DNA from: Candidatus Poribacteria bacterium
Lineage (GTDB): Bacteria > Poribacteria > WGA-4E > WGA-3G
Direction of reading: 5' to 3'
Length of the DNA stretch: 64,000 nucleotides
Assembly (NCBI GenBank): GCA_965232115.1
Contig: OZ246958.1
Span: forward strand, 4,098,841-4,162,840
Part shown: in pieces, positions 20,153-38,129 of the stretch
Position numbering within the stretch: position 1 is the stretch's first letter
How the letters are laid out: each line of letters begins with the position of its first letter
Notes under the pieces: generated by a model
What the model was told of the DNA's origin: nothing
The model's input: only the letters and a program-made list of their open reading frames with translations
The model's database searches: none
Translations under genes and position numbers: made by a program

Positions 20153-22306
20153 ATGCGTTCCAGAATAGCTTTATTGGTATTGGTAGTGGTTGCAGCAATA
20201 AATTTAAACGTCAGAGCCAGCAAAGAAATTAGACCCTTGCTAACACAAGAAACAATCGAAATTGACGGACATCTCAATGAAGAGGCTTGGACAGAGGCAC
20301 AAGTTATCGACGACTTTACGCAACAATCACCCGATGAAGGGCAACCCATTAGCGAACGCACTGAGGTGCGGATGTTGTACGACACAGAGAAACTTTATAT
20401 CGGATTTGAATGCTACGACTCCGAACCCGAAAAAGTCGTTGCCAACGAGATGCGGCGCGACGGGCAGCTTTGGCAAAATGATAACGTTTACGTGATGCTC
20501 GATACCTACGGTGACAAACGACAGTGCTTTTTCTTTCGGATGAATGCCCTTGGTGCGATGTCAGACACCGCAGTCACGGATGGTGGGGAGAACCTTAACG
20601 GGAGCTGGGATTGTATCTGGGAAGCGGGCGGACAGCGACACGATAAAGGATGGACGGTCGAAATCGCGATTCCCTTTAACCAGCTGCGGTTCAAAAAGAG
20701 CGACTCGATGGTATGGGGCGTGAATTTTGGACGGAACATCGCGCGAAAGAACGAAACATCGCAATGGATACAAGTGCCTCGCAGCGAGAGTTGGCCCGGC
20801 ACCTATCACCCTACCTATCAAGGCAAAGTGATTGGACTCCAAGGCATCACATCGCCATCCTATTTTGATGTCAAACCGTACCTCCTCGGCGGGTTGGCGA
20901 GGAATCTCGACGATACAATTTGGAAGCGGACAACCGAAGGCGACCTCGGGCTTGATATGAAATACGGAATAACGTCAAACCTGACACTGGACTGGACTGT
21001 AAACACCGATTTCGCGCAGGTAGAGGCAGACCAGGAAGAGGTCAACCTCACACGATTCGATCTCTTTTTCCCCGAACGCCGCGAATTTTTTCTTGAGGGC
21101 AGCGGACTGTTCGCCTTCGGTGCAGGTATCGGAGATTTCGGTCCACCCCCGTTGTCGGTTTTTTACAGCCGTCGGATCGGTATCGAAAACGAACAACAGG
21201 TTCGACTCCTTGGTGGCGGTAAACTCACAGGGAAAGTCGGACCCTACAGTATCGGTGCGCTCAATATGACGACCGATGCTACATCGGACGTACCGTTGAC
21301 GAATTTCTCTGTGCTAAGAATGCAGCGCGATATACTCAGCGATTCAAGTATGGGTTTCATTCTCACTAACCGACAAAGTGACGTTACCGGCAACTACCAT
21401 CGCAACGGTGGGGTAGATTTATTTTTTCGACCACACGATCAGTGGCGGATGCGCGCAATGACCGTCGGCAGTTGGTCTCCAGAGCCCGACGAAAGCGATT
21501 TCGCATGGTATCTCTCAAATGATTGGCGCAACGACCAATTCCGCATTAACGCCTCTTATCTCGACATCGGTCCTGAATTTACAAGCAAAATGGGATTCGT
21601 AAATCGGACAGACATCCGCTCGTTGATGTTGAATACCAGTTACGAACGCCAAATCAGACAGTACAGCATACGAGACGTTGGCGCGCTCTTCTCTGGCAGC
21701 TATCTGTTGGACCACGATAACAGTCTCATCGGTTGGGACCTATCCACCGGTGGGAGTATGCTCTGGGACTCTGATGACGGATTCAATCTTGATTTCAAAC
21801 GGGTCTTTGATCGTGTTGACGAACCTTTCACAATCAGTGATGTTGAGATTCCGGCTGGCGATTACGAGATGAACGAGGTCTCGCTCACTGTTTTCACCCA
21901 GACCAGCCGTCCGTTTAGCGTATTCGGTGGAATAGACTTTGGGGATTACTTTAACGGCAACCGTGTCGGTTTCGACATAGATAGCCAGTGGCGGATGACC
22001 TATCAACTGGCGATCGAAACGCGATACCAGCGCAATTGGATTAAATTGCCTGAAAGCGAACGCTTTACAACAAACGTCATTGGTACCCGCATTAGTTACG
22101 CGTTGAACACCCGTTTCTTTACCAAACTGTACGCACAGTGGAATGACGATGCCCAACGTGCAAGCGCGAACTTCTTGATTAATTACATCTATCGTCCGGG
22201 TAGCGATTTCTATCTCGTGTACGATCAGGCATGGAACACATCGGAAGGTCTCAACGGACACGAATGGACGGTTTTGAGTAAGTTTACCTATCTATTCAGT
22301 CTGTAG
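20153..22306 (+). CDS. secreted DUF5916/CBM9-like domain protein
   Basis: Signal peptide (LLVLVVVAAINLNVRA). N-terminal IEIDGHLNEEAW..IDDF resembles the CBM9-like head of DUF5916 proteins. 717 aa. Confidence 0.45.
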   Translation: MRSRIALLVLVVVAAINLNVRASKEIRPLLTQETIEIDGHLNEEAWTEAQVIDDFTQQSPDEGQPISERTEVRMLYDTEKLYIGFECYDSEPEKVVANEMRRDGQLWQNDNVYVMLDTYGDKRQCFFFRMNALGAMSDTAVTDGGENLNGSWDCIWEAGGQRHDKGWTVEIAIPFNQLRFKKSDSMVWGVNFGRNIARKNETSQWIQVPRSESWPGTYHPTYQGKVIGLQGITSPSYFDVKPYLLGGLARNLDDTIWKRTTEGDLGLDMKYGITSNLTLDWTVNTDFAQVEADQEEVNLTRFDLFFPERREFFLEGSGLFAFGAGIGDFGPPPLSVFYSRRIGIENEQQVRLLGGGKLTGKVGPYSIGALNMTTDATSDVPLTNFSVLRMQRDILSDSSMGFILTNRQSDVTGNYHRNGGVDLFFRPHDQWRMRAMTVGSWSPEPDESDFAWYLSNDWRNDQFRINASYLDIGPEFTSKMGFVNRTDIRSLMLNTSYERQIRQYSIRDVGALFSGSYLLDHDNSLIGWDLSTGGSMLWDSDDGFNLDFKRVFDRVDEPFTISDVEIPAGDYEMNEVSLTVFTQTSRPFSVFGGIDFGDYFNGNRVGFDIDSQWRMTYQLAIETRYQRNWIKLPESERFTTNVIGTRISYALNTRFFTKLYAQWNDDAQRASANFLINYIYRPGSDFYLVYDQAWNTSEGLNGHEWTVLSKFTYLFSL

Positions 22307-26985: not shown

Positions 26986-27741
26986 ATGACATCCGAAAAG
27001 AGAGGCTTAACACCTACGCAAAAAGCGTTCTATCAGGAAAACGGGTATCTCGTCCTTGAAAGCGTCTTCTCAGCGGAAGAATGTCAAAGTTTTGTAGCGC
27101 ACATGGAAGACCTTCACACAGGGCATAAACATCTCGAAGGATTCTTTCAACAGGATAAATATGGGGCTCGTACCTTTAATCAGCATCTATATGACCAACG
27201 TGTATTGGACTTGCTGATCAATTCGCGCTTACACAAGCCACTCACAGACTGCTTTGGCGGGGAACCAGAAGGCATCCAGACGATGCACTTTTACGAAGGT
27301 TCAGAGCATCCATTCCATCAAGACCAATACTATCTGCCCGACTGCATGTCTGCGTGGATCGCGATGGTCAGTGTTGATGAGAATAACGGTCCCCTCATCG
27401 TACAACCGGGTTCACATAAAGGTCAATTAGTTACGAAAAAGGACGTGCCGATGACCTTTCTACCGGGAGAAACCTACGAGCAACAACAGCACAATCGCTA
27501 TTTTCCAGCAGTCAAACAAGTTTTTGAAGAAAATGGCGTGGATGCGGTTCAAGTTATGGTGAACGCTGGAGATGTGATTCTCTTTGACGGCAAATTAATC
27601 CACGGCGGTGCAGAAATTCTGCAGCCCGGTACCCGTAGACATGCGTTAGCGTGCCATTATATCCCTTACGCCTCCGAAAACTGGGAACGCGATTGGCCGC
27701 GATTCTCATTTGATGGAAGTCAGCGAATTCATTATGAATAA
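26986..27741 (+). CDS. phytanoyl-CoA dioxygenase (PhyH) family protein
   Basis: HQDQYYL motif, with a downstream His (IHGG). Confidence 0.7.
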   Translation: MTSEKRGLTPTQKAFYQENGYLVLESVFSAEECQSFVAHMEDLHTGHKHLEGFFQQDKYGARTFNQHLYDQRVLDLLINSRLHKPLTDCFGGEPEGIQTMHFYEGSEHPFHQDQYYLPDCMSAWIAMVSVDENNGPLIVQPGSHKGQLVTKKDVPMTFLPGETYEQQQHNRYFPAVKQVFEENGVDAVQVMVNAGDVILFDGKLIHGGAEILQPGTRRHALACHYIPYASENWERDWPRFSFDGSQRIHYE

Positions 27742-27855
27742 AATGAGCGTAGCAACTCGTAAAAAAAGCATTGAAAATTGACATATCACAACTTGTATGT
27801 TATTCTTAATGACTAACCCCTTAGCAATTTGATAACCCTTTTAGGAGGTGGAACC

Positions 27856-28527
27856 ATGCAGCAAAAAGTCGTGTCTGCTCCAACACCCTTCTATCCCTCT
27901 TCAGATGGTAAACCTATGGCAGAAACTGATTGGCATCGTAAACTACTTATGGACCTCCTTCAAATGATTGAACATCACTTTCGGGAACATGATGATGTTT
28001 ATGTTTCTGGAGATCTGTTAATCTATTACGAAATGGGCGATGCAACGAAATCGGTTGCCCCCGATGTTTTTGTCGTTCGGGGAGTCGCGAAAAAGCAGCG
28101 TGGCACCTATCTGACCTGGGAGGAATCTCACACACCCGATTTTGTGATAGAACTTGCAAGTCCGAGCACAGTTCAGCATGATCTAACCCGGAAGAAAGAT
28201 TTATATGAGTCTGTTCTGAAAGTGCAGGAATATTACATCTATGACCCACGCCATCAAATACGGCCACATTTCATAGGTTTTCATTTGGTTGATGGCGCGT
28301 ATGAGGAAATGGCATTTGTGAATGAACGTCTTCCGTCATCGGTGTTGAACTTAGAACTCGGTGAGCGCGATGGGATGTTGGGCTTGTATGATCCTGAGAT
28401 AGAGCAGTGGTTGGAACCTCCCCAAGAACGTGCTGAACAGGAAGCCCTTGCTCGTGAACACGCTGAGGCTGAACTGGCAAAGGCTTTGGCAACGCTTGAA
28501 CGCCTCCAGGCTGAAGATAGAAACTGA
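27856..28527 (+). CDS. Uma2-family (DUF820) restriction-endonuclease-fold protein with a coiled-coil tail
   Basis: PD-(D/E)xK-like core: D(V/I)F...E..(S/T).. pattern (PDVFVV, FVIELASPST). AGGAGG RBS. E/A/R-rich C-terminal tail. Confidence 0.65.
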   Translation: MQQKVVSAPTPFYPSSDGKPMAETDWHRKLLMDLLQMIEHHFREHDDVYVSGDLLIYYEMGDATKSVAPDVFVVRGVAKKQRGTYLTWEESHTPDFVIELASPSTVQHDLTRKKDLYESVLKVQEYYIYDPRHQIRPHFIGFHLVDGAYEEMAFVNERLPSSVLNLELGERDGMLGLYDPEIEQWLEPPQERAEQEALAREHAEAELAKALATLERLQAEDRN

Positions 28528-28550
28528 CCTCTCACATAGGAGAAAATACA

Positions 28551-31175
28551 GTGCGATACCAATTGACTTTTTGGATCTGTTTAACCATCATCATCGGTTA
28601 TTGCTTTCCAGCAGCTGCACAAGAAGCGGCACAATCCGCAAAGCCTGCGACGCAGGCAGCACCCACAGAAAAGAAAAAAGAGTTTGAAGATTTTGCCAAA
28701 GTGATTGCGGACAGTAAAAACTACGACGGCTTTTTCAAACTATACCAGAAAAAAGAAAAACTCTACTGCGAAATTCAGCCATCACAATTAGAGCAGCCTT
28801 TTCTATGCATGATTAGCCTTTCGCGCGGCTTAGGAAGAGGATTCCTTATCTCAGGAATGATAATGGACGATTGGCTCCTCGTCTGGCGACGCGTCGGCGA
28901 CAACGTGCATCTCGTGCGAAAAAATGTACGCTACCGTGCTGAGAAGGGGACACCGACTGCCCAAGCGGTTGACTACAGTTACAGCGATTCCATCTTATTT
29001 TCTCTTAAGATTGAAAGTATCCATCCACAACGAAAGAGTCTGTTAGTGGACATTTCTCCGGTCTTTATATCTGATCTGCTACCTCTGGCGCGCAGTATTG
29101 CCTCCGACGCACGCTTCGACAAAACGCGTAGCACTTGGGGAACAGTCAAGGCATTTCCAAAGAACGTAGAGTTGAGGGTCGAAGCGGTCTACACATCGCA
29201 AAGCTATATAGAAACTGTCCCTGACAGTCGTGGCATCCAGTTGACGCTACACTATAGCCTCGCTGCACTCCCATCGAACAGCTATCAGCCGCGATTGGCT
29301 GATGACAGACTCGGACACTTCATGACGACGATCAAAGATTATTCCGCTCGCGTCAGCGAAGAACCGTTTGCGCGGTACGTCCAACGGTGGCATTTGGAGA
29401 AAGCGGATAAAGATGCGAAACTCTCGCCGCCGATGGATCCGATCATCTTCTACATTGAGAAAACAGTGCCACATCGCTTCCGTCCTTATATCCGGCAGGG
29501 CATTTTGGAATGGAACAAGGCGTTTGAAAAAATTGGATTCGCCGACGCGATTGAAGCACGGATTCAGCAAGATTACGAAGACTGGGACCCCGAAGACGCG
29601 CGGTATAACACAATCCGCTGGGTGGTTGATGCAGGGTTCGCCATTGGTCCGTCCCGCGTGAACCCTTTGACAGGGCAAATACTGGATGCCGATATCCTTA
29701 TCAGTGACGTCTTCATCAGGGGGTGGCAGCGACAATATACGACCTTCTTTGATGAGTTGGAGCATGAGCGCGATCATCCGATGGATCCCGCTTCACGCTA
29801 TCGGTGCCAGATGGCATCAGGATTAGCACATCAGGTGGGACTCATGACGAGCGTTTTGCAAGCGCGAGACCTGATCGATGAGGGGGGTGAACTCCCAGAA
29901 GAGTTTATTGGGCAAGCTCTCAAAACGTTGACGATGCACGAAGTGGGACATACACTCGGATTGCGTCACAACTTTAAAGCGAGTACGATATTTTCTCTTG
30001 ACGACATAAATAAAAAAGAGGGTGAAGCACTTATCGGCTCCGTTATGGAGTACGACGCTGTGAATATCGCGCCTGAAGGCGAGAAACAGGGACATTACTA
30101 CACACCAACAATTGGGCCTTGGGACCATTGGGTGGTCGAGTATGCATATAAACCCATTAGTGCAAGCAAACCGGAAGGCGAATTAGAAGAATTGGGCAAA
30201 ATCGCTTCCCGTTCTGCGATGCCAGAACTCACGTATGCTACGGATGAAGATGCGTCTTGGTATCGCTACCGAGATCTTGATCCATTAGTCAATCGAGGGG
30301 ACCTCGGTGCCGACCCGCTTGAGTTTGCGAAACGGCGGCGAGAGATTGTCGTCGAACTCTGGGATAAGATCGCAGATAAGGTCACAAAAGAGGGAAAAGG
30401 CTATCAACGCGTCAGACAGGCATTTGGAAGGTTGCTTTATGAACACGGCTATACCATGTACCTCGCAAGCCGTTATATCGGTGGACAGTATCACCACCGC
30501 GATCACCGCGGCGATGAAAACGGACGTTTACCGTTCGTGCCGGTCCCCGCAGCGAAACAACGCGAAGCACTCGAATTCCTCAAAGAACACGCCCTCTCAG
30601 ATAGTACTTTCGATTTCCCACCGGATCTGTTGAACAGCCTGGCAATCACCCGTTGGAGCGACTGGGGAGCCGCCAGTTGGAATTCCACACGTTTCGATTA
30701 TCCCGTCCATGATGTCATTTTGACGAATCAAACCCGTATCTTGGAACGGTTGCTCTATCCGAATGTCCTTGCGCGCGTTCAGGACACAGAACTCAAGTTC
30801 CCGAAAGGTGAAGATGCGTTCACACTCCCAGAACTCTTTTCTGGCATTACAGATGCGGTTTGGGTGGACCTTGAACGGAATCTCGGAGAAATGCAGTGGT
30901 CGAATACAGAGGCGTTTATCTCCAGTTTCCGGCGCGGTTTGCAACGTGAACACCTCAAGCAACTCATCAAACTGGTGTTGGATGCCGACAGCGGGACACC
31001 TGAGGATGCGAGATCGCTTGCACGCCTTCATCTTGAGCAAATCAATACTCGGATACAACAGGTGCTTCAAAATGCACAAGGAAGACTTGACGATTATAGC
31101 GTGGCGCACCTTGAAGAGTCACAAGTTCGAGTTACGAAGGCGTTGGATGCCAACTTCCAAGTCGAGGAACGCTAA
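28551..31175 (+). CDS. secreted zinc metalloprotease, DUF4953/DUF5117-like (HEXXH), paralog 1
   Basis: Signal peptide. LTMHEVGHTLGLRHNF zincin motif. 874 aa. ~85% identical to the next gene. Confidence 0.7.
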   Translation: MRYQLTFWICLTIIIGYCFPAAAQEAAQSAKPATQAAPTEKKKEFEDFAKVIADSKNYDGFFKLYQKKEKLYCEIQPSQLEQPFLCMISLSRGLGRGFLISGMIMDDWLLVWRRVGDNVHLVRKNVRYRAEKGTPTAQAVDYSYSDSILFSLKIESIHPQRKSLLVDISPVFISDLLPLARSIASDARFDKTRSTWGTVKAFPKNVELRVEAVYTSQSYIETVPDSRGIQLTLHYSLAALPSNSYQPRLADDRLGHFMTTIKDYSARVSEEPFARYVQRWHLEKADKDAKLSPPMDPIIFYIEKTVPHRFRPYIRQGILEWNKAFEKIGFADAIEARIQQDYEDWDPEDARYNTIRWVVDAGFAIGPSRVNPLTGQILDADILISDVFIRGWQRQYTTFFDELEHERDHPMDPASRYRCQMASGLAHQVGLMTSVLQARDLIDEGGELPEEFIGQALKTLTMHEVGHTLGLRHNFKASTIFSLDDINKKEGEALIGSVMEYDAVNIAPEGEKQGHYYTPTIGPWDHWVVEYAYKPISASKPEGELEELGKIASRSAMPELTYATDEDASWYRYRDLDPLVNRGDLGADPLEFAKRRREIVVELWDKIADKVTKEGKGYQRVRQAFGRLLYEHGYTMYLASRYIGGQYHHRDHRGDENGRLPFVPVPAAKQREALEFLKEHALSDSTFDFPPDLLNSLAITRWSDWGAASWNSTRFDYPVHDVILTNQTRILERLLYPNVLARVQDTELKFPKGEDAFTLPELFSGITDAVWVDLERNLGEMQWSNTEAFISSFRRGLQREHLKQLIKLVLDADSGTPEDARSLARLHLEQINTRIQQVLQNAQGRLDDYSVAHLEESQVRVTKALDANFQVEER

Positions 31176-31224
31176 AGGATCCTATATTTCCGATTAGGAT
31201 TTTTATAAAGTCCATATATCTACT

Positions 31225-31244
31225 GGCGGGGTTGAAACCCCGCC
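31225..31244 (+). terminator. GC-rich hairpin (GGCGGGGTTGAAACCCCGCC) between the two metalloprotease paralogs
   Basis: Perfect 7-9 bp stem read directly. The trailing sequence is not U-rich, so it is either a weak terminator or a REP-like element. A similar hairpin is at 4630-4651. Confidence 0.4.
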
Positions 31245-31293
31245 AATCTTCTGATGTATAACCAAGTGTATCGTTCACTAAGGAGAAGAAACG

Positions 31294-33882
31294 ATGCGGC
31301 ATCTATTGACATTTTGGATCTGTCTCATCACAATAAGCGGTTACTGTATTTCAGTATCTGCACAAGAAACAACAGAAAAAAAACAAGAGTTTACAGATTT
31401 CGCAAAAGTGATTGAAGATAGTAAAAACTACGACGGCTTCTTCAAACTATACCAGAAAAAAGAAAAACTCTATTGTGAAATCCAACCCTCACAATTGGAT
31501 CAGCCTTTTCTATGCATGACCAGTCTTGCACGCGGCTTAGCGAGAGGACGGCTTATCTCAGGAATAATAATGGATGAATGGTTGCTCGTTTGGCGGCGCG
31601 TTGGCGATAACGTGCATCTCGTGCGAAAAAATGTGCGATACCGTGCTGAAAAGGGAACACCGACTGCCCAAGCAGTTGACTACAGTTACAGCGACTCTGT
31701 ATTATTTTCTCTTAAGATTGAAAGTGTACATCCACAACGAAAGAGTCTATTGGTCGATATTTCTCCGGTTTTTATGTCCGATTTGCCGCCACTGGCACGT
31801 CGTATTGCCGCTGATGCCCGCTTTGATAAAACACGCAGCACTTGGGGAACAATCAAGGTGTTTCCAAAGAACGTCGAATTGAGAGTCAAAGCGGTCTATA
31901 CATCGCAAAGTTACATAGAAACCGTCCCCGACAGTCGTGGCATCCAGTTGACGGTGCATTACAGCCTCGCTGCACTTCCATCCAACAACTATCAACCCCG
32001 ACCGGCTGACGACAGGCTTGGACACTTCATGACAACGATCAAAGACTATTCGGCTCAAGTTAGCGAGGAACCCTTCGCTCGTTACGTCAATCGCTGGCAT
32101 CTGGAGAAAGCCGACAAGGATGCAAAACTTTCACCCCCAAAAGATCCGATCATCTTCTACATTGAAAAAACCGTACCGCACCGCTTCCGTCCTTACATCC
32201 GGCAGGGGATCCTCGAATGGAACAAGGCGTTTGAAAAGGCGGGTTTTGTCGATGCGATTGAAGCACGCATTCAGCAGGACTATGAGGACTGGGACCCCGA
32301 AGACGCACGGTATAACACGATCCGTTGGGTGGTTGACGCAGGATTCGCCACCGGTCCCTCTCGCGTGAATCCACTGACAGGACAGATACTGGATGCCGAC
32401 ATCCTTATTACCGATGGTTTCATCAGGTCTTGGCGGCGAGAATATACAACGTTCTTTGATGAGTTAGCGCATGAGCGTGATCATCCGATGGACCCATCTT
32501 CACAATTTCAGTGTCAGATGGGATCTGGGTTGGTGCATCAGATGGGGTTCATGGCAAGTGTCTTGGATGCGCGGGATCTGACTGGCGAAGGCGGTGAACT
32601 CCCAGAAGAGTTTCTCGGAGAGGCACTCAAAGCACTGACGATGCATGAAGTGGGACATACATTGGGATTGCGCCATAACTTTAAAGCGAGTACAATTTTC
32701 TCTCTCGACGACTTGAACAAAAAGAATGGAGAAGCCATCCTCGGTTCTGTCATGGAATACGATGCTGTGAACATCGCACCCGAAGGTGAAAAACAAGGGC
32801 ATTACTATACGCCGACAATCGGCCCCTGGGACTACTGGGTGATTGAATATGCCTATAAACCCACTAATGCGAGCAAGCCAGAAGATGAATTAGAGGCGTT
32901 GCGCAAAATCGCTACCCGTGCGCCAACGCCGGAACTGACGTATGCTACAGATAGCGATGCTTATGGGTATCAACATCGAGATATTGACCCATTGGTCAAC
33001 CGCTGGGACCTCGGCGACGATCCACTTGAATTTGCCAAACAACGTCGTGAGATTGTTGTTGGACTCTGGGATAAGATTGCAAACAAAGTTACAAAAGAAG
33101 GCGAAGGCTATCAACGAACCAGGCGGGCTTTCCGTACACTCATTGTTGAACACGGTTATACCATGTACCTCGCAAGTCGTTACATCGGTGGGCAGTACCA
33201 CCACCGCGATCATCGCGGCGATGAAAATGGACGGTTGCCCTTCGTGCCGGTCCCCGCAGCGAAACAACGCGAAGCACTCGAATTCCTCAAAGAACACGCC
33301 CTCTCGGACAAAGCCTTCAATTTCCCGCCGGACTTGCTTAACAGTCTGGCAATCACCCGTTGGAGCGATTGGGGAGCCGCCAGTTGGGATTCTACCCGTT
33401 TCGATTACCCGGTACATGAGATCATTCTGCGCTATCAAAATCGCATTCTGGAACGCTTGCTCTACCCGAACGTTCTCGCACGGATTCAAGACACAGAGTT
33501 AAAGTTCCCTAAAGGTGCGGATGCGTTCACACTCCCTGAACTTTTTTCAGGCATTACGGATGCGGTCTGGACAGAATTGGATCGGAATATAGGAGAAAAG
33601 CAGTGGTCGAATACGGACGCGTTCATCTCCAGTTTCCGGCGCGGTTTACAACGCGAACATCTCAAGCGGCTTATCAAACTGGTATTAGATGCCGACAGTG
33701 GCACGCCTGAGGACGCAAGATCCCTCGCACGTCGCCATCTCGGGCAAATTAACACTCGCATACAGCGCGTGCTCCAAACCGCGCAAGGCAGACTTAACGA
33801 TTATAGCTTGGCACACCTCCAAGAGTCTCAAGTCCGAATTGCGAAGGCGTTAGATGCCAACTTCCAAGTCGAGGAACGCTAA
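31294..33882 (+). CDS. secreted zinc metalloprotease, DUF4953/DUF5117-like (HEXXH), paralog 2
   Basis: AAGGAG RBS, signal peptide, LTMHEVGHTLGLRHNF. 862 aa. Confidence 0.7.
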   Translation: MRHLLTFWICLITISGYCISVSAQETTEKKQEFTDFAKVIEDSKNYDGFFKLYQKKEKLYCEIQPSQLDQPFLCMTSLARGLARGRLISGIIMDEWLLVWRRVGDNVHLVRKNVRYRAEKGTPTAQAVDYSYSDSVLFSLKIESVHPQRKSLLVDISPVFMSDLPPLARRIAADARFDKTRSTWGTIKVFPKNVELRVKAVYTSQSYIETVPDSRGIQLTVHYSLAALPSNNYQPRPADDRLGHFMTTIKDYSAQVSEEPFARYVNRWHLEKADKDAKLSPPKDPIIFYIEKTVPHRFRPYIRQGILEWNKAFEKAGFVDAIEARIQQDYEDWDPEDARYNTIRWVVDAGFATGPSRVNPLTGQILDADILITDGFIRSWRREYTTFFDELAHERDHPMDPSSQFQCQMGSGLVHQMGFMASVLDARDLTGEGGELPEEFLGEALKALTMHEVGHTLGLRHNFKASTIFSLDDLNKKNGEAILGSVMEYDAVNIAPEGEKQGHYYTPTIGPWDYWVIEYAYKPTNASKPEDELEALRKIATRAPTPELTYATDSDAYGYQHRDIDPLVNRWDLGDDPLEFAKQRREIVVGLWDKIANKVTKEGEGYQRTRRAFRTLIVEHGYTMYLASRYIGGQYHHRDHRGDENGRLPFVPVPAAKQREALEFLKEHALSDKAFNFPPDLLNSLAITRWSDWGAASWDSTRFDYPVHEIILRYQNRILERLLYPNVLARIQDTELKFPKGADAFTLPELFSGITDAVWTELDRNIGEKQWSNTDAFISSFRRGLQREHLKRLIKLVLDADSGTPEDARSLARRHLGQINTRIQRVLQTAQGRLNDYSLAHLQESQVRIAKALDANFQVEER

Positions 33883-33904
33883 AGGTGAGCAATAGGAGTG
33901 ATAC

Positions 33905-34831
33905 ATGGAAATACGCCAATATACATCCGATCTGCAAACATTGGTGACACAATTTTACAACCACATAACCTCCAACATTCCGCATTGCTATCCAGTAACG
34001 GAAGAAGAATTCGCTATCGCGATAAGCCGAGTAACTACCGATAAAGCCGATTTAAAGGGGGATGGACTCGATTCCGAAACCGCCTTTGTAGCAATAGTCA
34101 ACGGTGTTATCCAAGCGTTTATCCACGTCGGTATTAGTCCAGCTCGGGAACATAGGAAAGAAAACTTAGGTGTTATTCGGTTCTTGGGTTATGAACGCGG
34201 GGCGCGAGCGGTTGGACAAGCCGTACTTGAAAAGGCAGAAGACTATCTGAAAGCGTTCAACGTTTCCCAAATTTCCGCTTTCCCACAAGATTGTCGTTAT
34301 CGTTTCTATCACTTTGAACACGCCTACCTGTCAGACACACTTGACCAAGTTCAAGGGCTCCTTGGATTCAACGGATACCGTCGTTCTGAAGGTGAGGTCT
34401 TTTTGGATTGGGAAGACTATTCCGTTACGCCCGTCCCTTCGAGTCTACCGGTAACGCTTTCTATCGAGTGGAAGGAGGGGCGTGGACGGTATCCGAATTG
34501 TACTGTGCTTGCCCACCAAGATAGTGAACAAGTTGGAATCTGTGAGTCTATTTGTGGCGGTGAGTTTTCAAGCCATCCGGATGCCCAAGATTGGTTTCAT
34601 ACGGTTTGGCTCGGTGTTGAAGACGATTTTCAAGGGCAAGGTTTGGGACGTTATCTGCTTCAATACGCGCTGCAAGAGATGAAGAAGATTGGATACCGGC
34701 ATGCAGCGATTAGTACTGCCTGGGATAACCATCGCGCATTTCTCTTTTACAGCAACTGCGGTTATCGGACTGTGGATTGGACGTATGAGTTCATGAAAAA
34801 CCTCTCGGAAACGCCGACACACAAGTGGTAG
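33905..34831 (+). CDS. two-domain GNAT-family acetyltransferase
   Basis: The C-terminal half has FQGQGLGRYLLQYAL (motif A). The N-terminal half is a degenerate acyl-CoA N-acyltransferase-like repeat. Confidence 0.6.
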   Translation: MEIRQYTSDLQTLVTQFYNHITSNIPHCYPVTEEEFAIAISRVTTDKADLKGDGLDSETAFVAIVNGVIQAFIHVGISPAREHRKENLGVIRFLGYERGARAVGQAVLEKAEDYLKAFNVSQISAFPQDCRYRFYHFEHAYLSDTLDQVQGLLGFNGYRRSEGEVFLDWEDYSVTPVPSSLPVTLSIEWKEGRGRYPNCTVLAHQDSEQVGICESICGGEFSSHPDAQDWFHTVWLGVEDDFQGQGLGRYLLQYALQEMKKIGYRHAAISTAWDNHRAFLFYSNCGYRTVDWTYEFMKNLSETPTHKW

Positions 34832-34835
34832 TCTA

Positions 34836-35519
34836 TCAGTACGATTTTACTCGCAGCATCTCATTCCCTGTTTTTTGGAAGTGATACGGGACGCGCGCAA
34901 CCGAGCACGTAATCCCATCTTTTTCAAGTTCGTGGATAACGGGTGATAAGAAAGGGGAAGGGTTGCTGTTGACATCAACAATGGGGAAAATTCTCACCTC
35001 GGTTCCGATACGAAGTAGTTCTCGCACGGCATCAAGATGAAACGTCAGATCTCTGTTTGCGGAGTAGAAAAAGAGGAAATGTGCGGAGAGTACGAGGTCG
35101 AAATGGCGATCAGGAAAGGGTAAATTCGGGAGTGATGCGTTGATATAGCGTTCCTGTTGCTTGCCTCTCTCAAAATCTCGGCAGAACTCATCCATTGCCT
35201 GCATCCTGACCTCTGACAACTCATTAACAGACGAGAATCTTGTCCAGACGAATTTATCCTGATTCCGGCGGGCTTGGGCGATGACATCCTCTTGGGTTTC
35301 CTGAATGCGTTGGCGCAATTCCGCCTCTGAATACCGGTAGATTGGGTCTATGGAGATTATCGGCGTGCGACGTTGGTACATCCGAAAATTGAACGACGCG
35401 GGACCATCACCTACGCCTACGATGTCCCGCGTCAAGTCTTCTTCAGAGAGGTTAAACATATCAAGATATTCGTCGAACGACCTACCCCACGGCACGATGT
35501 CTTTGTAATGGAAATCCAT
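34836..35519 (-). CDS. class I SAM-dependent methyltransferase
   Basis: VGVGDGPASF motif I, with an acidic post-I residue. Confidence 0.55.
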   Translation of the reverse strand: MDFHYKDIVPWGRSFDEYLDMFNLSEEDLTRDIVGVGDGPASFNFRMYQRRTPIISIDPIYRYSEAELRQRIQETQEDVIAQARRNQDKFVWTRFSSVNELSEVRMQAMDEFCRDFERGKQQERYINASLPNLPFPDRHFDLVLSAHFLFFYSANRDLTFHLDAVRELLRIGTEVRIFPIVDVNSNPSPFLSPVIHELEKDGITCSVARVPYHFQKTGNEMLRVKSY

Positions 35520-35608
35520 CCGGTGTCCTTAGAATTGTGTTGTTATCCGGAAAAAATTAACGTATAATGTTTATCAAAATAGCGAACGTTGTGGAGGACT
35601 TTTTTAAA

Positions 35609-35833
35609 ATGCGTAGAATTGAAGAGATAACCGCATCATTACCGGCGCTGACAACCGCTGAGTTACATCATATTGAGCGGGTTATTCGTGATTTATATCG
35701 GGTGCGCCACGAGCCTGTCATCTACGATGATGACTACGGCATCTGGACAGAATACGATCAGGTATCAACGGCATCAGCAGTTTTTGAACTCTTTGATAAA
35801 ATAGAAAAACAAGAGGACAATACGAATGCCTAA
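35609..35833 (+). CDS. putative antitoxin of the MazF-like toxin (non-canonical, acidic C-terminus)
   Basis: 75-aa ORF with a GGAGGA RBS. Overlaps the toxin start by 8 nt (ATGCCTAA). Very acidic C-terminus (YDDDYGIWTEYDQ...EKQEDNTNA). Confidence 0.5.
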   Translation: MRRIEEITASLPALTTAELHHIERVIRDLYRVRHEPVIYDDDYGIWTEYDQVSTASAVFELFDKIEKQEDNTNA

Positions 35834-36143
35834 GCGCGGTGAAATCTGGTTAGCCGACCTTGGCGTGGCGGCAAAGACACGCCCTGTTCTGGTACTCAGC
35901 GTCCCTTTTTCAGATTCTGATTACGCGCTAATTACTGTCGTACCGCACACGACAAGTTCAAGAAGGTCCAATTTTGAAGTAAACCTTTCTGTGGCTGCTT
36001 TAAGACCCGGTGCTTTCAATGTTCAAGGACTGATGGCTGTCCCACCCGCCAAGTTCATTCGCAAACTCGGAGCATTACGGTCTGCGCAAATGGAACAGGT
36101 CGCGGCTAGAGTAAAAAAGTGGCTCGGATTTTCATCCAATTAA
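35826..36143 (+). CDS. PemK/MazF-family type II toxin (endoribonuclease)
   Basis: Hallmark N-terminus PKRGEIWLADLG...KTRPVLVLS. 105 aa. Confidence 0.8.
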   Translation: MPKRGEIWLADLGVAAKTRPVLVLSVPFSDSDYALITVVPHTTSSRRSNFEVNLSVAALRPGAFNVQGLMAVPPAKFIRKLGALRSAQMEQVAARVKKWLGFSSN

Positions 36144-37183
36144 CCAGCAGCCCCGATCTCAACTTCCTGCAAAACTGCTGCTGCCCGTTGTGCCAACTCA
36201 GTTGTAGTATCTCGCTTGAGAGCCCGATTTAAGTGTAAGATGGCGCGTTCATCTCCATCTCTTGCGAGTTCCAAAGCCTCCTCAAATCCTTTGTTTCCGT
36301 AACTGAAATCCCTTGCGATAACCGTCAAGTCAAGATCCTTCCAATAATACTGCAGTTCATCAGATTTCCAATTCTCATAGACATGTTCCCACGTAAGGGA
36401 GTTGAAAATATTCAGGTGCGGTTCAAGCATGTGCTCAGCGATCGGGTCATCGACAGCCTGATAGCGGTTGTCGAGCGACACGCGAAGTCGATCTTCAGTC
36501 AAATTCGGCAGTGCCTTATGGATCGTCAAAGCTGGGAAGATGAGCGTATCGCCAACTTCATAGTTCGTGGAGTGCCATTCACCCGACAATTCGTCCTCAT
36601 TAACGCAGAGACTGCCAGCACCGAGCGAAAAGTGGTGTTCCATGACCTTGTTGATCTTATGTGATCCGGGTAGGACTGCTAAGCCACCTAACTCAATCGG
36701 ACAATCTCCGACGGGTGCCCAACAGGTATAGGTCTGGAAATTGCCTTGGAAGTGGACGAAATCTTGATGGATCGGGGTTGTATGTGCCGTGTACTTCGGG
36801 AACCAGAGGCGCGCAATCTTTTGCGGATGCGGTAGCACCTCTCTACCGACAATCTTTTCCACCATATCGACGACTTCGTGCCAGTGACCGGAACGGTGGA
36901 ACGCTTCTAATTTATAGACTTCATGGTACACGTCTGTATATTCGGGATCGCCTTCGGTACATTGGGTCGAAATATCAGCGATGCCGTCCATCGGGTCGGT
37001 CCCCGCGACGAGCCAACCGCCCTTCTGCATTGTCGTTAGCATCTCTCGCCGTAACGCCCAGAGTTTGTCGGGATCTTGTAGGCACTTGAAGAAGAGATAC
37101 CCTTCTTCTGAGATCCGGTGCCGCAACTCTTCTGGATCGTTCATCGCATCGTTGGATATGCGAAGTTCTTTTATTTTTTCCAT
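36140..37183 (-). CDS. phytanoyl-CoA dioxygenase (PhyH) family protein
   Basis: PIHQDFVHF motif. The stop overlaps the toxin gene end on the opposite strand. Confidence 0.7.
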   Translation of the reverse strand: MEKIKELRISNDAMNDPEELRHRISEEGYLFFKCLQDPDKLWALRREMLTTMQKGGWLVAGTDPMDGIADISTQCTEGDPEYTDVYHEVYKLEAFHRSGHWHEVVDMVEKIVGREVLPHPQKIARLWFPKYTAHTTPIHQDFVHFQGNFQTYTCWAPVGDCPIELGGLAVLPGSHKINKVMEHHFSLGAGSLCVNEDELSGEWHSTNYEVGDTLIFPALTIHKALPNLTEDRLRVSLDNRYQAVDDPIAEHMLEPHLNIFNSLTWEHVYENWKSDELQYYWKDLDLTVIARDFSYGNKGFEEALELARDGDERAILHLNRALKRDTTTELAQRAAAVLQEVEIGAAG

Positions 37184-37295
37184 CTGAATTTCTCCTCGCA
37201 TCTATTCGTGTCGGTCTCCGTAGATGGGGTACTTCTCTTTTTTCCGTATTCATAGTATAACACATACAAAACGAAAGATTCAATTTTTTTCTTTC

Positions 37296-38129
37296 CTACC
37301 GGTTCTTGCGATTTTTCGCAAGCCAATCAACAGCAAAGTCCACAATAGCACGTTGTGGCATGAGTTGGCAGTTTGCGATGCCGACCTTGCCACGCCGAAC
37401 TACTTTGCCCGCGTCAGAACGCAAAAAATCTTCACCGAGGCGATGGAAATCTGAATCGTCTACATCAATATCTTCAAAGGTAGTCCAGGTTCTTGAACCC
37501 TCTTGCGAGATCGGGGCACCCTCCTGCACAACGCGCTTGGTTGGAAAGTCCGCTCGGTATTCTGCAAGATGTATAGAGGTATTGCTCGAATGCCCGACAC
37601 CGAGAAGCAGGACAGAACCCTCCAAATCGTAGATTCTGGCAAGCGGTGAATTCTCGCCCATGCCAAACGCCAAGGAGTGGTTGCTTATGATGTAAGATGC
37701 TTGGGGCCCACTTGCGCAAAAGGAGCTCTGCGGATGCACACTGCGAAGAACGTTCTTTTGTTTTCGGAAGGTTTCGGCGATTTTGCCCATTGAACGGGTC
37801 GGAGTCAAATCGGGATCATAGGCAGGCATCGTCTCACGTATGATTTGCCACCACGATTCAGGGACAGGTGGGTTTTCCCATTGACTTGGATCGCTGAGGT
37901 CGGTCGAGTGGGCCGGCATTATAAGTGTACCCGTTTCACCTAAAACCTTCTGAAGGGCGAGGATAACAGCGACAGCACCGCCGCAGACCCACCCCAACGC
38001 ACTCAAGGAGGAATGGACTAATAAGACCGTGCCCTTTTCGACACCGAGTGCTTTAAAATCCGTCTGAAGCAACTCAACTGTAGCGAGTGTTTTTGTCTTG
38101 TCAACAATCTGACCTTCGGGCATTATCAA
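37296..38129 (-). CDS. aminoglycoside N(3)-acetyltransferase (AAC(3)/YokD family)
   Basis: Characteristic AAC(3) blocks: LLVHSSLSALGWVCGG, GTLIMPAHS, SVLLLGVGHSSNTSIHLAEYRA. Confidence 0.8.
   Translation of the reverse strand: MIMPEGQIVDKTKTLATVELLQTDFKALGVEKGTVLLVHSSLSALGWVCGGAVAVILALQKVLGETGTLIMPAHSTDLSDPSQWENPPVPESWWQIIRETMPAYDPDLTPTRSMGKIAETFRKQKNVLRSVHPQSSFCASGPQASYIISNHSLAFGMGENSPLARIYDLEGSVLLLGVGHSSNTSIHLAEYRADFPTKRVVQEGAPISQEGSRTWTTFEDIDVDDSDFHRLGEDFLRSDAGKVVRRGKVGIANCQLMPQRAIVDFAVDWLAKNRKNR

Follow-up and report, generated by a model that had tools for sequence, protein, structure and literature searches.

The closest described relatives of the two genes considered here are proteins that combine PF16313 (DUF4953, 'Met-zincin'), PF17162 (DUF5118) and PF17148 (DUF5117), and that carry the NCBI label 'zinc-dependent metalloprotease'. 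DUF4953 homologues of about 870 aa, with the same domain order and the same invariant HEVGHTLGLRHN as the present proteins, occur in Acidobacteriota, Cloacimonadota, Planctomycetota, Aminicenantes and Calditrichota, and the family is large, numbering 6589 representatives of 50%-identity clusters at E <= 1e-3. It appears to be a family without a characterised member and without a solved structure. Literature searches with the DUF names and Pfam accessions returned no papers, and those on Poribacteria metalloproteases or peptidases returned nothing relevant. Likewise, PDB searches with the protein and with a profile detected no solved structure for the family by sequence, the sole match being a marginal one to EcxA around the active-site helix (E = 0.04).

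This report addresses one such locus in the genome of a sponge-associated member of the Poribacteria, in which two members of the family, genes A and B, lie side by side and collinear. The window is the whole stretch of DNA that was analysed, 64,000 nt in length. The pair is best read as an old tandem duplication, made in place from a single Poribacteria gene and followed by conservation of both copies, a reading that we hold with considerable confidence.

The gene pair, its spacer and its neighbours

The first-pass annotation had described adjacent, collinear genes for proteins of about 870 aa and about 85% identity, and the open reading frames agree with it (Table 1). The two proteins are identical at 743 of 874 positions (85%, BLASTP) and the genes at 81.9% of nucleotides, with a single 12-aa gap in the protein alignment, which falls within the linker that follows the putative signal peptide and is shorter in B.

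Table 1. Coordinates of the protease genes, their signals and the adjacent genes in the window
Feature	Positions	Strand	Description
PhyH-family dioxygenase gene	26986-27741	+	Conserved upstream neighbour; synteny at 46/78 loci
Uma2-family gene (PF05685)	27829-28527	+	76.6 bits against a cut-off of 27; E = 2e-21
SD-like AGGAGAA	28538-28544	+	6 nt upstream of the gene A GTG
Gene A	28551-31175	+	GTG start, 874 aa
A-B spacer	31176-31293	+	118 nt; ancestral 3' flank with hairpin, then RBS region of the second copy (as read from sequence comparison)
Stem-loop TGGCGGGGT-TGAA-ACCCCGCCA	31224-31245	+	9-bp stem, 4-nt loop, dG -17.4 kcal/mol
SD-like AAGGAGAA	31280-31287	+	6 nt upstream of the gene B ATG
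Gene B	31294-33882	+	ATG start, 862 aa
GNAT acetyltransferase gene	33905-34831	+	Conserved downstream neighbour; synteny at 60/78 loci

Similarity between the copies begins at the ribosome-binding site, where the AGGAGAA of A aligns with its counterpart in B, and stops 6 nt after the stop codon. The spacer that follows is orthologous to the A-B spacers of two other Poribacteria loci (L079 and L001), and contains the stable GC hairpin that had been pointed out between the genes. Its GC-rich stem, flanking T/A included, is perfect and starts 48 nt past the stop of gene A, while its core GGCGGGGTTGAAACCCCGCC (31225-31244) occurs once in the window against 0 occurrences expected by chance. Judged from sequence comparison, the hairpin was already present at the 3' end of the ancestral protease gene and is no feature of the duplication. 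Orthologues of it, with conserved flanking sequence, stand downstream of single-copy genes in at least 14 species, and the hairpin has decayed or been deleted in other genomes with the pair.

The stem-loop is probably a terminator or a 3'-end stabiliser. Like intrinsic terminators, it has a GC-rich 9-bp stem with a 4-nt loop placed shortly after the stop codon, and most of the orthologous hairpins are trailed by AATTTTCTGTTGT; unlike them, the hairpin of the window is followed by AATCTTCTGATG, a degenerate T-tract with no run of T. A consensus scan neither called the spacer hairpin as a terminator nor found a promoter in the spacer; overall it reported no more sites than in shuffled sequence. 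Within 27500-35000 no Rfam match was obtained at E <= 1, so the hairpin belongs to no known RNA family. The stem is nearly invariant and covariation is minimal, limited to one compensatory pair (L067) and one G:U pair (L004). Hairpins of the GGCGGGG...CCCCGCC type are also seen in other intergenic regions of Poribacteria, so this one may alternatively be a REP-like element.

Immediately upstream lies a gene whose reported membership of the Uma2 family stands on its Pfam match. It is set between the PhyH gene and gene A, is present in 10 of 78 related loci, is absent from L001, L079 and L081 and is fragmentary in L002; it is a sporadic, incidental insertion. A functional link between Uma2 and the proteases was considered and rejected, both for this low incidence and for its absence from other genomes that bear the pair. 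Downstream, the GNAT gene starts 22 nt past the stop of gene B with its own ribosome-binding site, and is probably co-transcribed with B.

Domains, zinc site and putative export signal

Both proteins show the Pfam order DUF5118-DUF5117-DUF4953 with all three domains above the gathering cut-offs (27, 27 and 24.2 bits), the respective scores being 33.3, 107.3 and 263 bits in A and 37.1, 105.7 and 272 bits in B. The zincin-type DUF4953/DUF5117 family that had been proposed for HMM searching is thereby matched far above threshold (Pfam E = 1e-78 and 1e-81). An NCBIfam scan gave no match for A or B, and Peptidase_M10 (PF00413, matrixin) reached 17.5 and 16.5 bits, below its cut-off of 24, in a match limited to about 25 residues around HEXXH.

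The zinc motif is the same in both proteins, as had been noted, the 16-mer LTMHEVGHTLGLRHNF that contains it being identical in A and B. Within it, HEVGHTLGLRH (residues 463-473 in A, 451-461 in B) fits HEXXHXXGXXH, and reads in A as H463-E464-x-x-H467-x-x-G470-x-x-H473. The third ligand is therefore a His, of the metzincin kind, and not the conserved downstream Glu or Asp that the first-pass annotation had described; assignment to the gluzincins or aspzincins, with a distal Glu/Asp ligand and a thermolysin- or M1-like fold, was tried and rejected, as the proteins do not have the features of that class. In an alignment of 111 diverse homologues, with B among the aligned sequences, the residues H463, E464, H467, H473, S497, M499 and Y501 never vary, nor does HEVGHTLGLRHN, and conservation of G470 is at least 90%. 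The segment S497-V-M499-x-Y501, whose M499 lies 26 residues past the third His, is a candidate Met-turn. In total, 50 of 50 family-invariant residues in this alignment are kept in both copies, so that both are most likely active proteases, and A and B most likely share the same chemistry and a very similar specificity.

An AlphaFold model (pLDDT 86.8) was built from an alignment diversified by homologues from a profile search with six outgroup sequences. In this model the catalytic domain has the metzincin fold. On its N-terminal side lie about 400 aa rich in beta structure and on its C-terminal side about 300 helical aa, and for neither flank did the PDB offer a convincing match. By fold comparison of the predicted structure, the DUF5118-DUF5117-DUF4953 protein is a true metzincin to which large domains are added on both sides.

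Export by the Sec route is inferred for both proteins from their N-termini, which read MRYQ-LTFWICLTIIIGYCF-PAAA/QE in A and MRHL-LTFWICLITISGYCI-SVSA/QE in B (the slash marks the putative end of the signal peptide). By eye, these putative signal peptides have an n-region Arg, a hydrophobic core of about 15 residues and AAA/QE or VSA/QE, and no lipobox is evident at either N-terminus. In A the signal peptide would cover roughly residues 1-23, with a flexible linker from there to about residue 42; A23, Q24 and E25 are at least 90% conserved, and the model places a helix at residues 2-18 with a disordered linker after it.

Age, origin and divergence of the two copies

The duplication had been called recent. 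In fact, dS between A and B is 1.02, a value near saturation, imprecise, and a lower bound because of gene conversion, and it exceeds the dS of 0.39-0.66 between orthologues of different GTDB species. In neighbour-joining trees on protein distances, B of the window clusters at 100% bootstrap with its counterparts, the B genes of L001, L079 and L081, and the A+B clade as a whole also has 100% support, whereas the two genes of the window are sisters in 0 of 200 bootstraps. As to copy number in related genomes, which had been proposed as a check, the A-then-B order, at 86-87% identity, recurs in at least three other Poribacteria assemblies (L001, L079/L080 and L081/L082).

An ancestral gene would have encoded an exported zinc endopeptidase of about 95 kDa, with beta-rich DUF5118/DUF5117 domains, a metzincin-fold DUF4953 domain and a helical C-terminal region. 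On this reading the copied unit extended from the ribosome-binding site to some 100 nt beyond the stop codon, and so left the ancestral 3' stem-loop in the A-B spacer. The duplication is older than the divergence of several present-day Poribacteria species. Alleles move between lineages by homologous recombination, so the branching of the gene may differ from that of the species, and the number of speciations that the duplication predates is uncertain to that extent.

The evidence for such exchange comes from L022, whose flanking genes place it beside the genome of the window (97% bootstrap). Its single protease gene is a mosaic: the ends share 93-98% identity with A, while some 700 codons in the middle share 90-97% with L010/L011 and only about 80% with A. 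Because the gene is a mosaic with A-type ends, recombination was preferred over hidden paralogy, which was rejected as the cause of the conflict between the gene tree and the flank tree. A gene-conversion tract is present in L001, and the copies exchange sequence in this way. The locus is also subject to gain and loss: independent tandem pairs are found in L003, L007, L017, L021 and L030, and B has been deleted in the close relatives L002 and L022.

Two other origins for the arrangement can be weighed against duplication in place. Recombination of the kind recorded in L022 lends some plausibility to B being a pseudo-paralogue, that is, an allele from another Poribacteria lineage inserted beside the resident gene. 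Yet the B clade is sister to the A-type clade with full support, no single-copy gene among the 72 sampled species is closer to B than A is, and the spacer consists of the gene's own 3' flank and own ribosome-binding region, as expected for a head-to-tail duplication; import of B is thus highly improbable. That the pair is an assembly artefact, a falsely expanded repeat, was considered and rejected, the chance being practically negligible. The suggestion came solely from the first-pass annotation, which had named it as an outcome that would overturn its own reading, and nothing was found to support it. Reads could not be confused between A and B, given that 18% of their nucleotides differ, that one 36-nt indel sets them apart and that both flanks are unlike; L083, assembled independently from another sample, matches the window at 99.89% identity with unchanged gene order, and orthologous pairs are present in three other genomes.

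The function of the copies raises a different contest, as the first-pass annotation saw a recent pair in functional divergence that may be acquiring different specificities, which would mean neofunctionalisation or diversifying selection. Certain features do point that way. Twenty-five positions distinguish every A copy from every B copy, and their distribution is uneven: 7 fall in residues 418-443, a segment that takes in the helix directly preceding the active-site helix, and 8 in residues 583-629; a few non-conservative changes affect otherwise conserved sites, in A (W583G) and in B (I365T and N726Y); and the locus is often duplicated and recombined, as contact-exposed secreted proteins sometimes are. 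Against it stand the age of the pair, older than speciation, and the dN/dS values, 0.075 for A against B, 0.052 inside the A lineage and 0.073 inside the B lineage. With 0.05-0.08 overall and no 60-codon window above 0.2, dN/dS gave no real sign of divergence. Rates are symmetric, as distances to outgroups (0.232 versus 0.241) and the about equal sharing of fixed or derived changes between the lineages indicate. Differences fall mostly in family-variable columns (mean conservation 0.725 at differing against 0.896 at identical positions), the family-invariant residues are retained throughout, and B has been lost without replacement in close relatives. Of the regions cited as differing, EHALSD itself is identical in both proteins, only the residues after it being different, and the DASWYRYRDLD loop varies among single-copy orthologues too. 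Recent divergence in specificity is, on this balance, quite unlikely.

The clustered substitutions at 418-443 and 583-629 are mostly conservative and could represent a real, if small, functional difference. It is rather unlikely that the locus is a hotspot of duplication, loss, gene conversion and inter-lineage allele exchange since the secreted enzyme meets a changing target, with specificities of A and B that differ through these two segments; if A and B do have different preferences, the pair would be an entry point to the specificity determinants of a large metzincin family. Candidates for such a target are matrix or immune proteins of the sponge host, or competitors. For the old, conserved pair preferred here, strong and about equal purifying selection has held both copies, each of which keeps H463, H467 and H473 as zinc ligands, E464 as catalytic residue, and M499; dosage, or else a subtle division of labour, is probably the reason why both persist.

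Significance and comparison with known metzincins

The pair is an ordinary feature, tandem paralogues of secreted hydrolases being common, and its proteins are already catalogued in Pfam and in NCBI annotation, which gives them little weight as a discovery. A modest value lies in the placement, by fold comparison, of a large family of thousands of clusters in many phyla as metzincins. Additionally, the locus documents birth-and-death evolution in uncultivated symbionts, through duplication, loss, gene conversion and an inter-lineage mosaic, and advises caution when duplications are dated or species trees are built from such genes.

Compared with the DUF4953 family, A and B show no essential difference and are ordinary members. 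The metzincins with which they were compared are EcxA (4l6t), the serralysin alkaline protease (1akl), snapalysin (4hx3), matrix metalloproteinases and astacin/BMP1. Like these, A and B carry HEXXHXXGXXH and an invariant Met 26 residues after the third His. Unlike them, they have an Asn after the third His, share just 13-20% identity with the named enzymes, and hold the catalytic domain between large flanking regions, with no pro-domain or cysteine switch identified.

Age of the Protease Pair

The two adjacent genes, designated A and B, go back to an old tandem duplication of a gene for a secreted protease of the metzincin family, and both copies are conserved. Each has a Shine-Dalgarno-like AGGAGAA located 6 nt 5' of its start codon. 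The open reading frames lie exactly where the first-pass annotation had placed them, and the collinear, roughly 85% identical proteins it described were recovered by BLASTP (743/874 identities, 85%), with one gap of 12 residues in the low-complexity linker after the N-terminal hydrophobic segment. The zincin motif, LTMHEVGHTLGLRHNF, is the same in both, as had been stated. An assembly artefact as the source of the pair is ruled out: nucleotide identity is 81.9%, so that 18% of bases differ, and a second assembly, made independently from a different sample (the 128-kb contig L083; L handles denote fetched related loci or assemblies), repeats the arrangement, with 99.89% identity to window 27295-37886 and an unchanged gene order.

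The duplication had been considered recent, which its divergence contradicts. By the Nei-Gojobori method, A and B show a dS of 1.02 (pS 0.56, near saturation), against an orthologue dS of 0.39 between the window and L002, and 0.53-0.66 between the window and L001. Among 72 Poribacteria species representatives, sampled with 6 outgroups, most carry one protease copy, and two copies in tandem are confined to the window, L001, L003, L007, L017, L021 and L030. Neighbour-joining trees (200 bootstraps) never recovered window A and B as sisters; B grouped with the downstream copy of L001 (100%), A with L002 and the upstream L001 copy (99%), and A and B formed a clade with L059 and the downstream copy of L003 (100%). 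Independent metagenome assemblies supplied two more B orthologues (L079/L080 and L081/L082), each of which likewise sits downstream of its A partner; the B clade remained at 100% once they were added, and A-B identity inside one genome is put at 86-87% in all four genomes with this A-B pair. The orthologue dS, well under that of the paralogues, and the tree groupings argue that the duplication is old, preceding the divergence of several GTDB species. In five other species a tandem copy falls outside the A+B clade: the second copies of L007, L017, L021 and L030, together with the upstream one of L003, all within 3 kb of their partner. These are most simply read as separate duplications, with a support of only 57-77%.

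Positions of the protease pair, its neighbours and related features
Feature	Location	Strand	Detail
Gene A	window 28551-31175	+	GTG start, 874 aa
Gene B	window 31294-33882	+	ATG start, 862 aa
Hairpin GGCGGGGTTGAAACCCCGCC	window 31225-31244		single occurrence in window
PhyH, Uma2, A, B, GNAT	window 26986-34831	+	gaps 87, 23, 118, 22 nt
Uma2, intact	window 27829-28527	+	
Uma2, three fragments	L002:7517-7967		same position, between upstream neighbour and A
Carbohydrate-binding protein	window 20153-22306		717 aa; CBM9-like and DUF5916 domains
Putative toxin-antitoxin pair	window 35567-36143		88-aa ORF overlapping PemK/MazF-like gene
Second PhyH-family gene	window 36140-37201	-	kept in 47/78 loci
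Aminoglycoside 3-N-acetyltransferase family gene	window 37296-38129	-	Pfam E = 2e-95; kept in 34/78 loci
L001 protease copies	L001:5252-7873, L001:8001-10592		
L022 single protease gene	L022:8001-10619		
Doubled GNAT	L004:10883-12845		81%, 68% identical to window GNAT
Doubled GNAT	L021:15773-17675		80%, 64% identical to window GNAT
Nested hairpins	L009:10652-10720, L018, L025:2882-2952, L049:10655-10724		second hairpin in loop
Tandem hairpins	L014 (2699, 2754), L024 (5568, 5622)		element twice

Constraint and Differentiation of the Copies

The pair had been viewed as undergoing functional divergence, and most of this reading did not hold. The dN between A and B is 0.077 and the dN/dS 0.075, with no 60-codon window above 0.2; the corresponding window-L001 ratios are 0.052 for the A orthologues and 0.073 for the B orthologues. 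Rates are symmetric, with mean distances to the outgroups of 0.232 (A) and 0.241 (B), and the 47 fixed differences (three A and two B sequences) include 19 A-derived and 17 B-derived. Mean family conservation is 0.725 at columns where A and B differ versus 0.896 at identical columns, and most differences fall at positions where single-copy orthologues vary too. The loop proposed as a substrate-facing difference, DASWYRYRDLD versus DSDAYGYQHRDID, is such a hotspot, reading, for instance, DEDAYGYRFRDLD in the single-copy L022 and DGDASWYRYRDLD in L037. Fixed shifts at sites conserved to at least 90% number 6 in A and 7 in B and are mostly conservative, the exceptions being W583G (A), I365T and N726Y (both B).

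Comparing five A with four B sequences gave 25 diagnostic positions (12 A-derived, 11 B-derived, 2 ambiguous), 7 of which cluster in residues 418-443, including the helix ahead of the active-site helix, and 8 in residues 583-629. The substitutions in these clusters are mostly conservative (M/V, F/L, A/T, A/G). Against the low dN/dS of 0.05-0.08 and the symmetric rates, this clustering is the sole hint of functional differentiation. Gene B is missing from L022. It is also cleanly deleted from L002, which the gene tree makes the closest relative and in which 25 nt separate A from GNAT; B is therefore dispensable in nature.

Dynamics and Spacer of the Locus

The conserved order in Poribacteria is ADH, (peptidase S51), PhyH, one or two protease genes, GNAT, a methyltransferase-like gene, PhyH and aminoglycoside N-acetyltransferase. 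The gene immediately upstream of A was confirmed as a Uma2-family member, as first annotated. Its rarity (10/78 loci), its absence from the other pair-bearing genomes and its fragments in L002 mark it as an incidental insertion, which is decaying in L002. Given one strand and short gaps, co-transcription from PhyH to GNAT is possible, and there may be a conserved PhyH-protease-GNAT operon, without obvious functional logic.

Several further features were observed. In L001, only ~21 nt separate the PhyH stop from the A start, and the downstream GNAT is tandemly doubled in L004 and L021. The second PhyH-family gene and the acetyltransferase gene are retained in part of the loci, and the carbohydrate-binding protein is encoded upstream of the syntenic block. 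The 88-aa ORF and its overlapping gene resemble a toxin-antitoxin pair of type II; of the 78 related loci only L001 has it, amid an otherwise syntenic region, and so it appears to be a mobile insertion.

Birth-and-death and recombination at the protease locus are ordinary. The two L001 copies share a gene-conversion tract, ~100 codons of 0.94-0.97 nucleotide identity, versus 0.83 in the window, with a longest identical run of 86 nt. The 65-nt identical run between window A and B (99th percentile of codon shuffles, 52; region dS ~0.5) could reflect either local constraint or a short conversion event of some age. Flanking genes group the window with L022 and L002 (97% bootstrap), and the L022 protease gene is only 81% identical to A. 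Identity to A is 93-98% over its first ~55 codons and over codons 781-830; the middle ~700 codons are ~80% identical to A and 90-97% to L010/L011. This gene is a recombinant mosaic, the A-like ends and L010/L011-like middle showing that a divergent allele was imported by homologous recombination.

The GC hairpin reported between the genes is present as a perfect stem. With its flanking T/A, it has 9 bp, a 4-nt loop and a dG of -17.4 kcal/mol, 48 nt past the A stop codon. The same stem-loop lies ~48 nt past the stop of the single-copy gene in L004, L005, L013, L014, L020, L024, L028, L029, L032, L057 and L067, which indicates that the spacer hairpin is an ancestral 3' element, brought there by the duplication; L003 has it after both copies. 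Similarity between the A and B copies starts at the RBS and stops just past the stop codon. The hairpin flanks are conserved (consensus CCTATATTTGCTGGCGGGGTTTGTAACCCCGCCAATTTTCTGTTGTATA) and the stem is nearly invariant, with one compensatory G-C to A-T change in L067 and one G:U pair in L004. Most orthologues have a T-rich tail, AATTTTCTGTTGT, the window tail being AATCTTCTGATG; a terminator scan did not call the window hairpin, and Rfam gave no match for it. Among pair-bearing genomes it is perfect in the window, carries one mismatch in L079, is decayed in L001, and is gone in L081 with most of the spacer, of which 32 nt are left. We infer that the hairpin most likely terminates transcription or stabilises the 3' end, and that it has grown dispensable between the copies. 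Nested and tandemly doubled forms occur elsewhere, and in many other species the same site is occupied by another conserved hairpin, GTAGGCGCGCTTTGTAAGCGCGCCTAT; all of these could be intergenic elements of a REP-like kind in Poribacteria.

Protein Family and Metzincin Likeness

The expected zincin-like placement holds, as both proteins match Pfam DUF5118, DUF5117 and DUF4953 ("Met-zincin") far over the curated cut-offs. They score under the cut-off of the matrixin Pfam model, and the NCBIfam scan found no model for either. The family is large, with 6589 representatives at E <= 1e-3 and 1662 at E <= 1e-30 among 1.84 billion cluster representatives searched, and homologues of 35-45% identity occur in Acidobacteriota, Cloacimonadota, Planctomycetota, Aminicenantes and Calditrichota. 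A 100% identical entry for B already exists in public databases, and our literature search on the DUF5118-DUF5117-DUF4953 family found no paper. The family is already known but uncharacterised, and A and B are ordinary new members.

By eye, both N-termini look like Sec signal peptides (AAA|QE in A, VSA|QE in B). The putative cleavage-site region is kept across Poribacteria, and the structure model has an N-terminal helix followed by a disordered linker. A beta-rich N-terminal region (~400 residues) precedes the catalytic domain and a helical C-terminal one (~300 residues) follows it; neither gave a convincing structural match. Across 111 diverse aligned members, H463, E464, H467, H473, N474, S497, M499 and Y501 are invariant, giving the extended HEXXHXXGXXH motif and a candidate Met-turn. 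This makes the third zinc ligand a histidine, rather than the downstream Glu or Asp suggested earlier. Sequence searches detected no solved structure except EcxA, a metzincin that matches marginally, around the active-site helix, and modelling predicts a metzincin fold for the catalytic domain.
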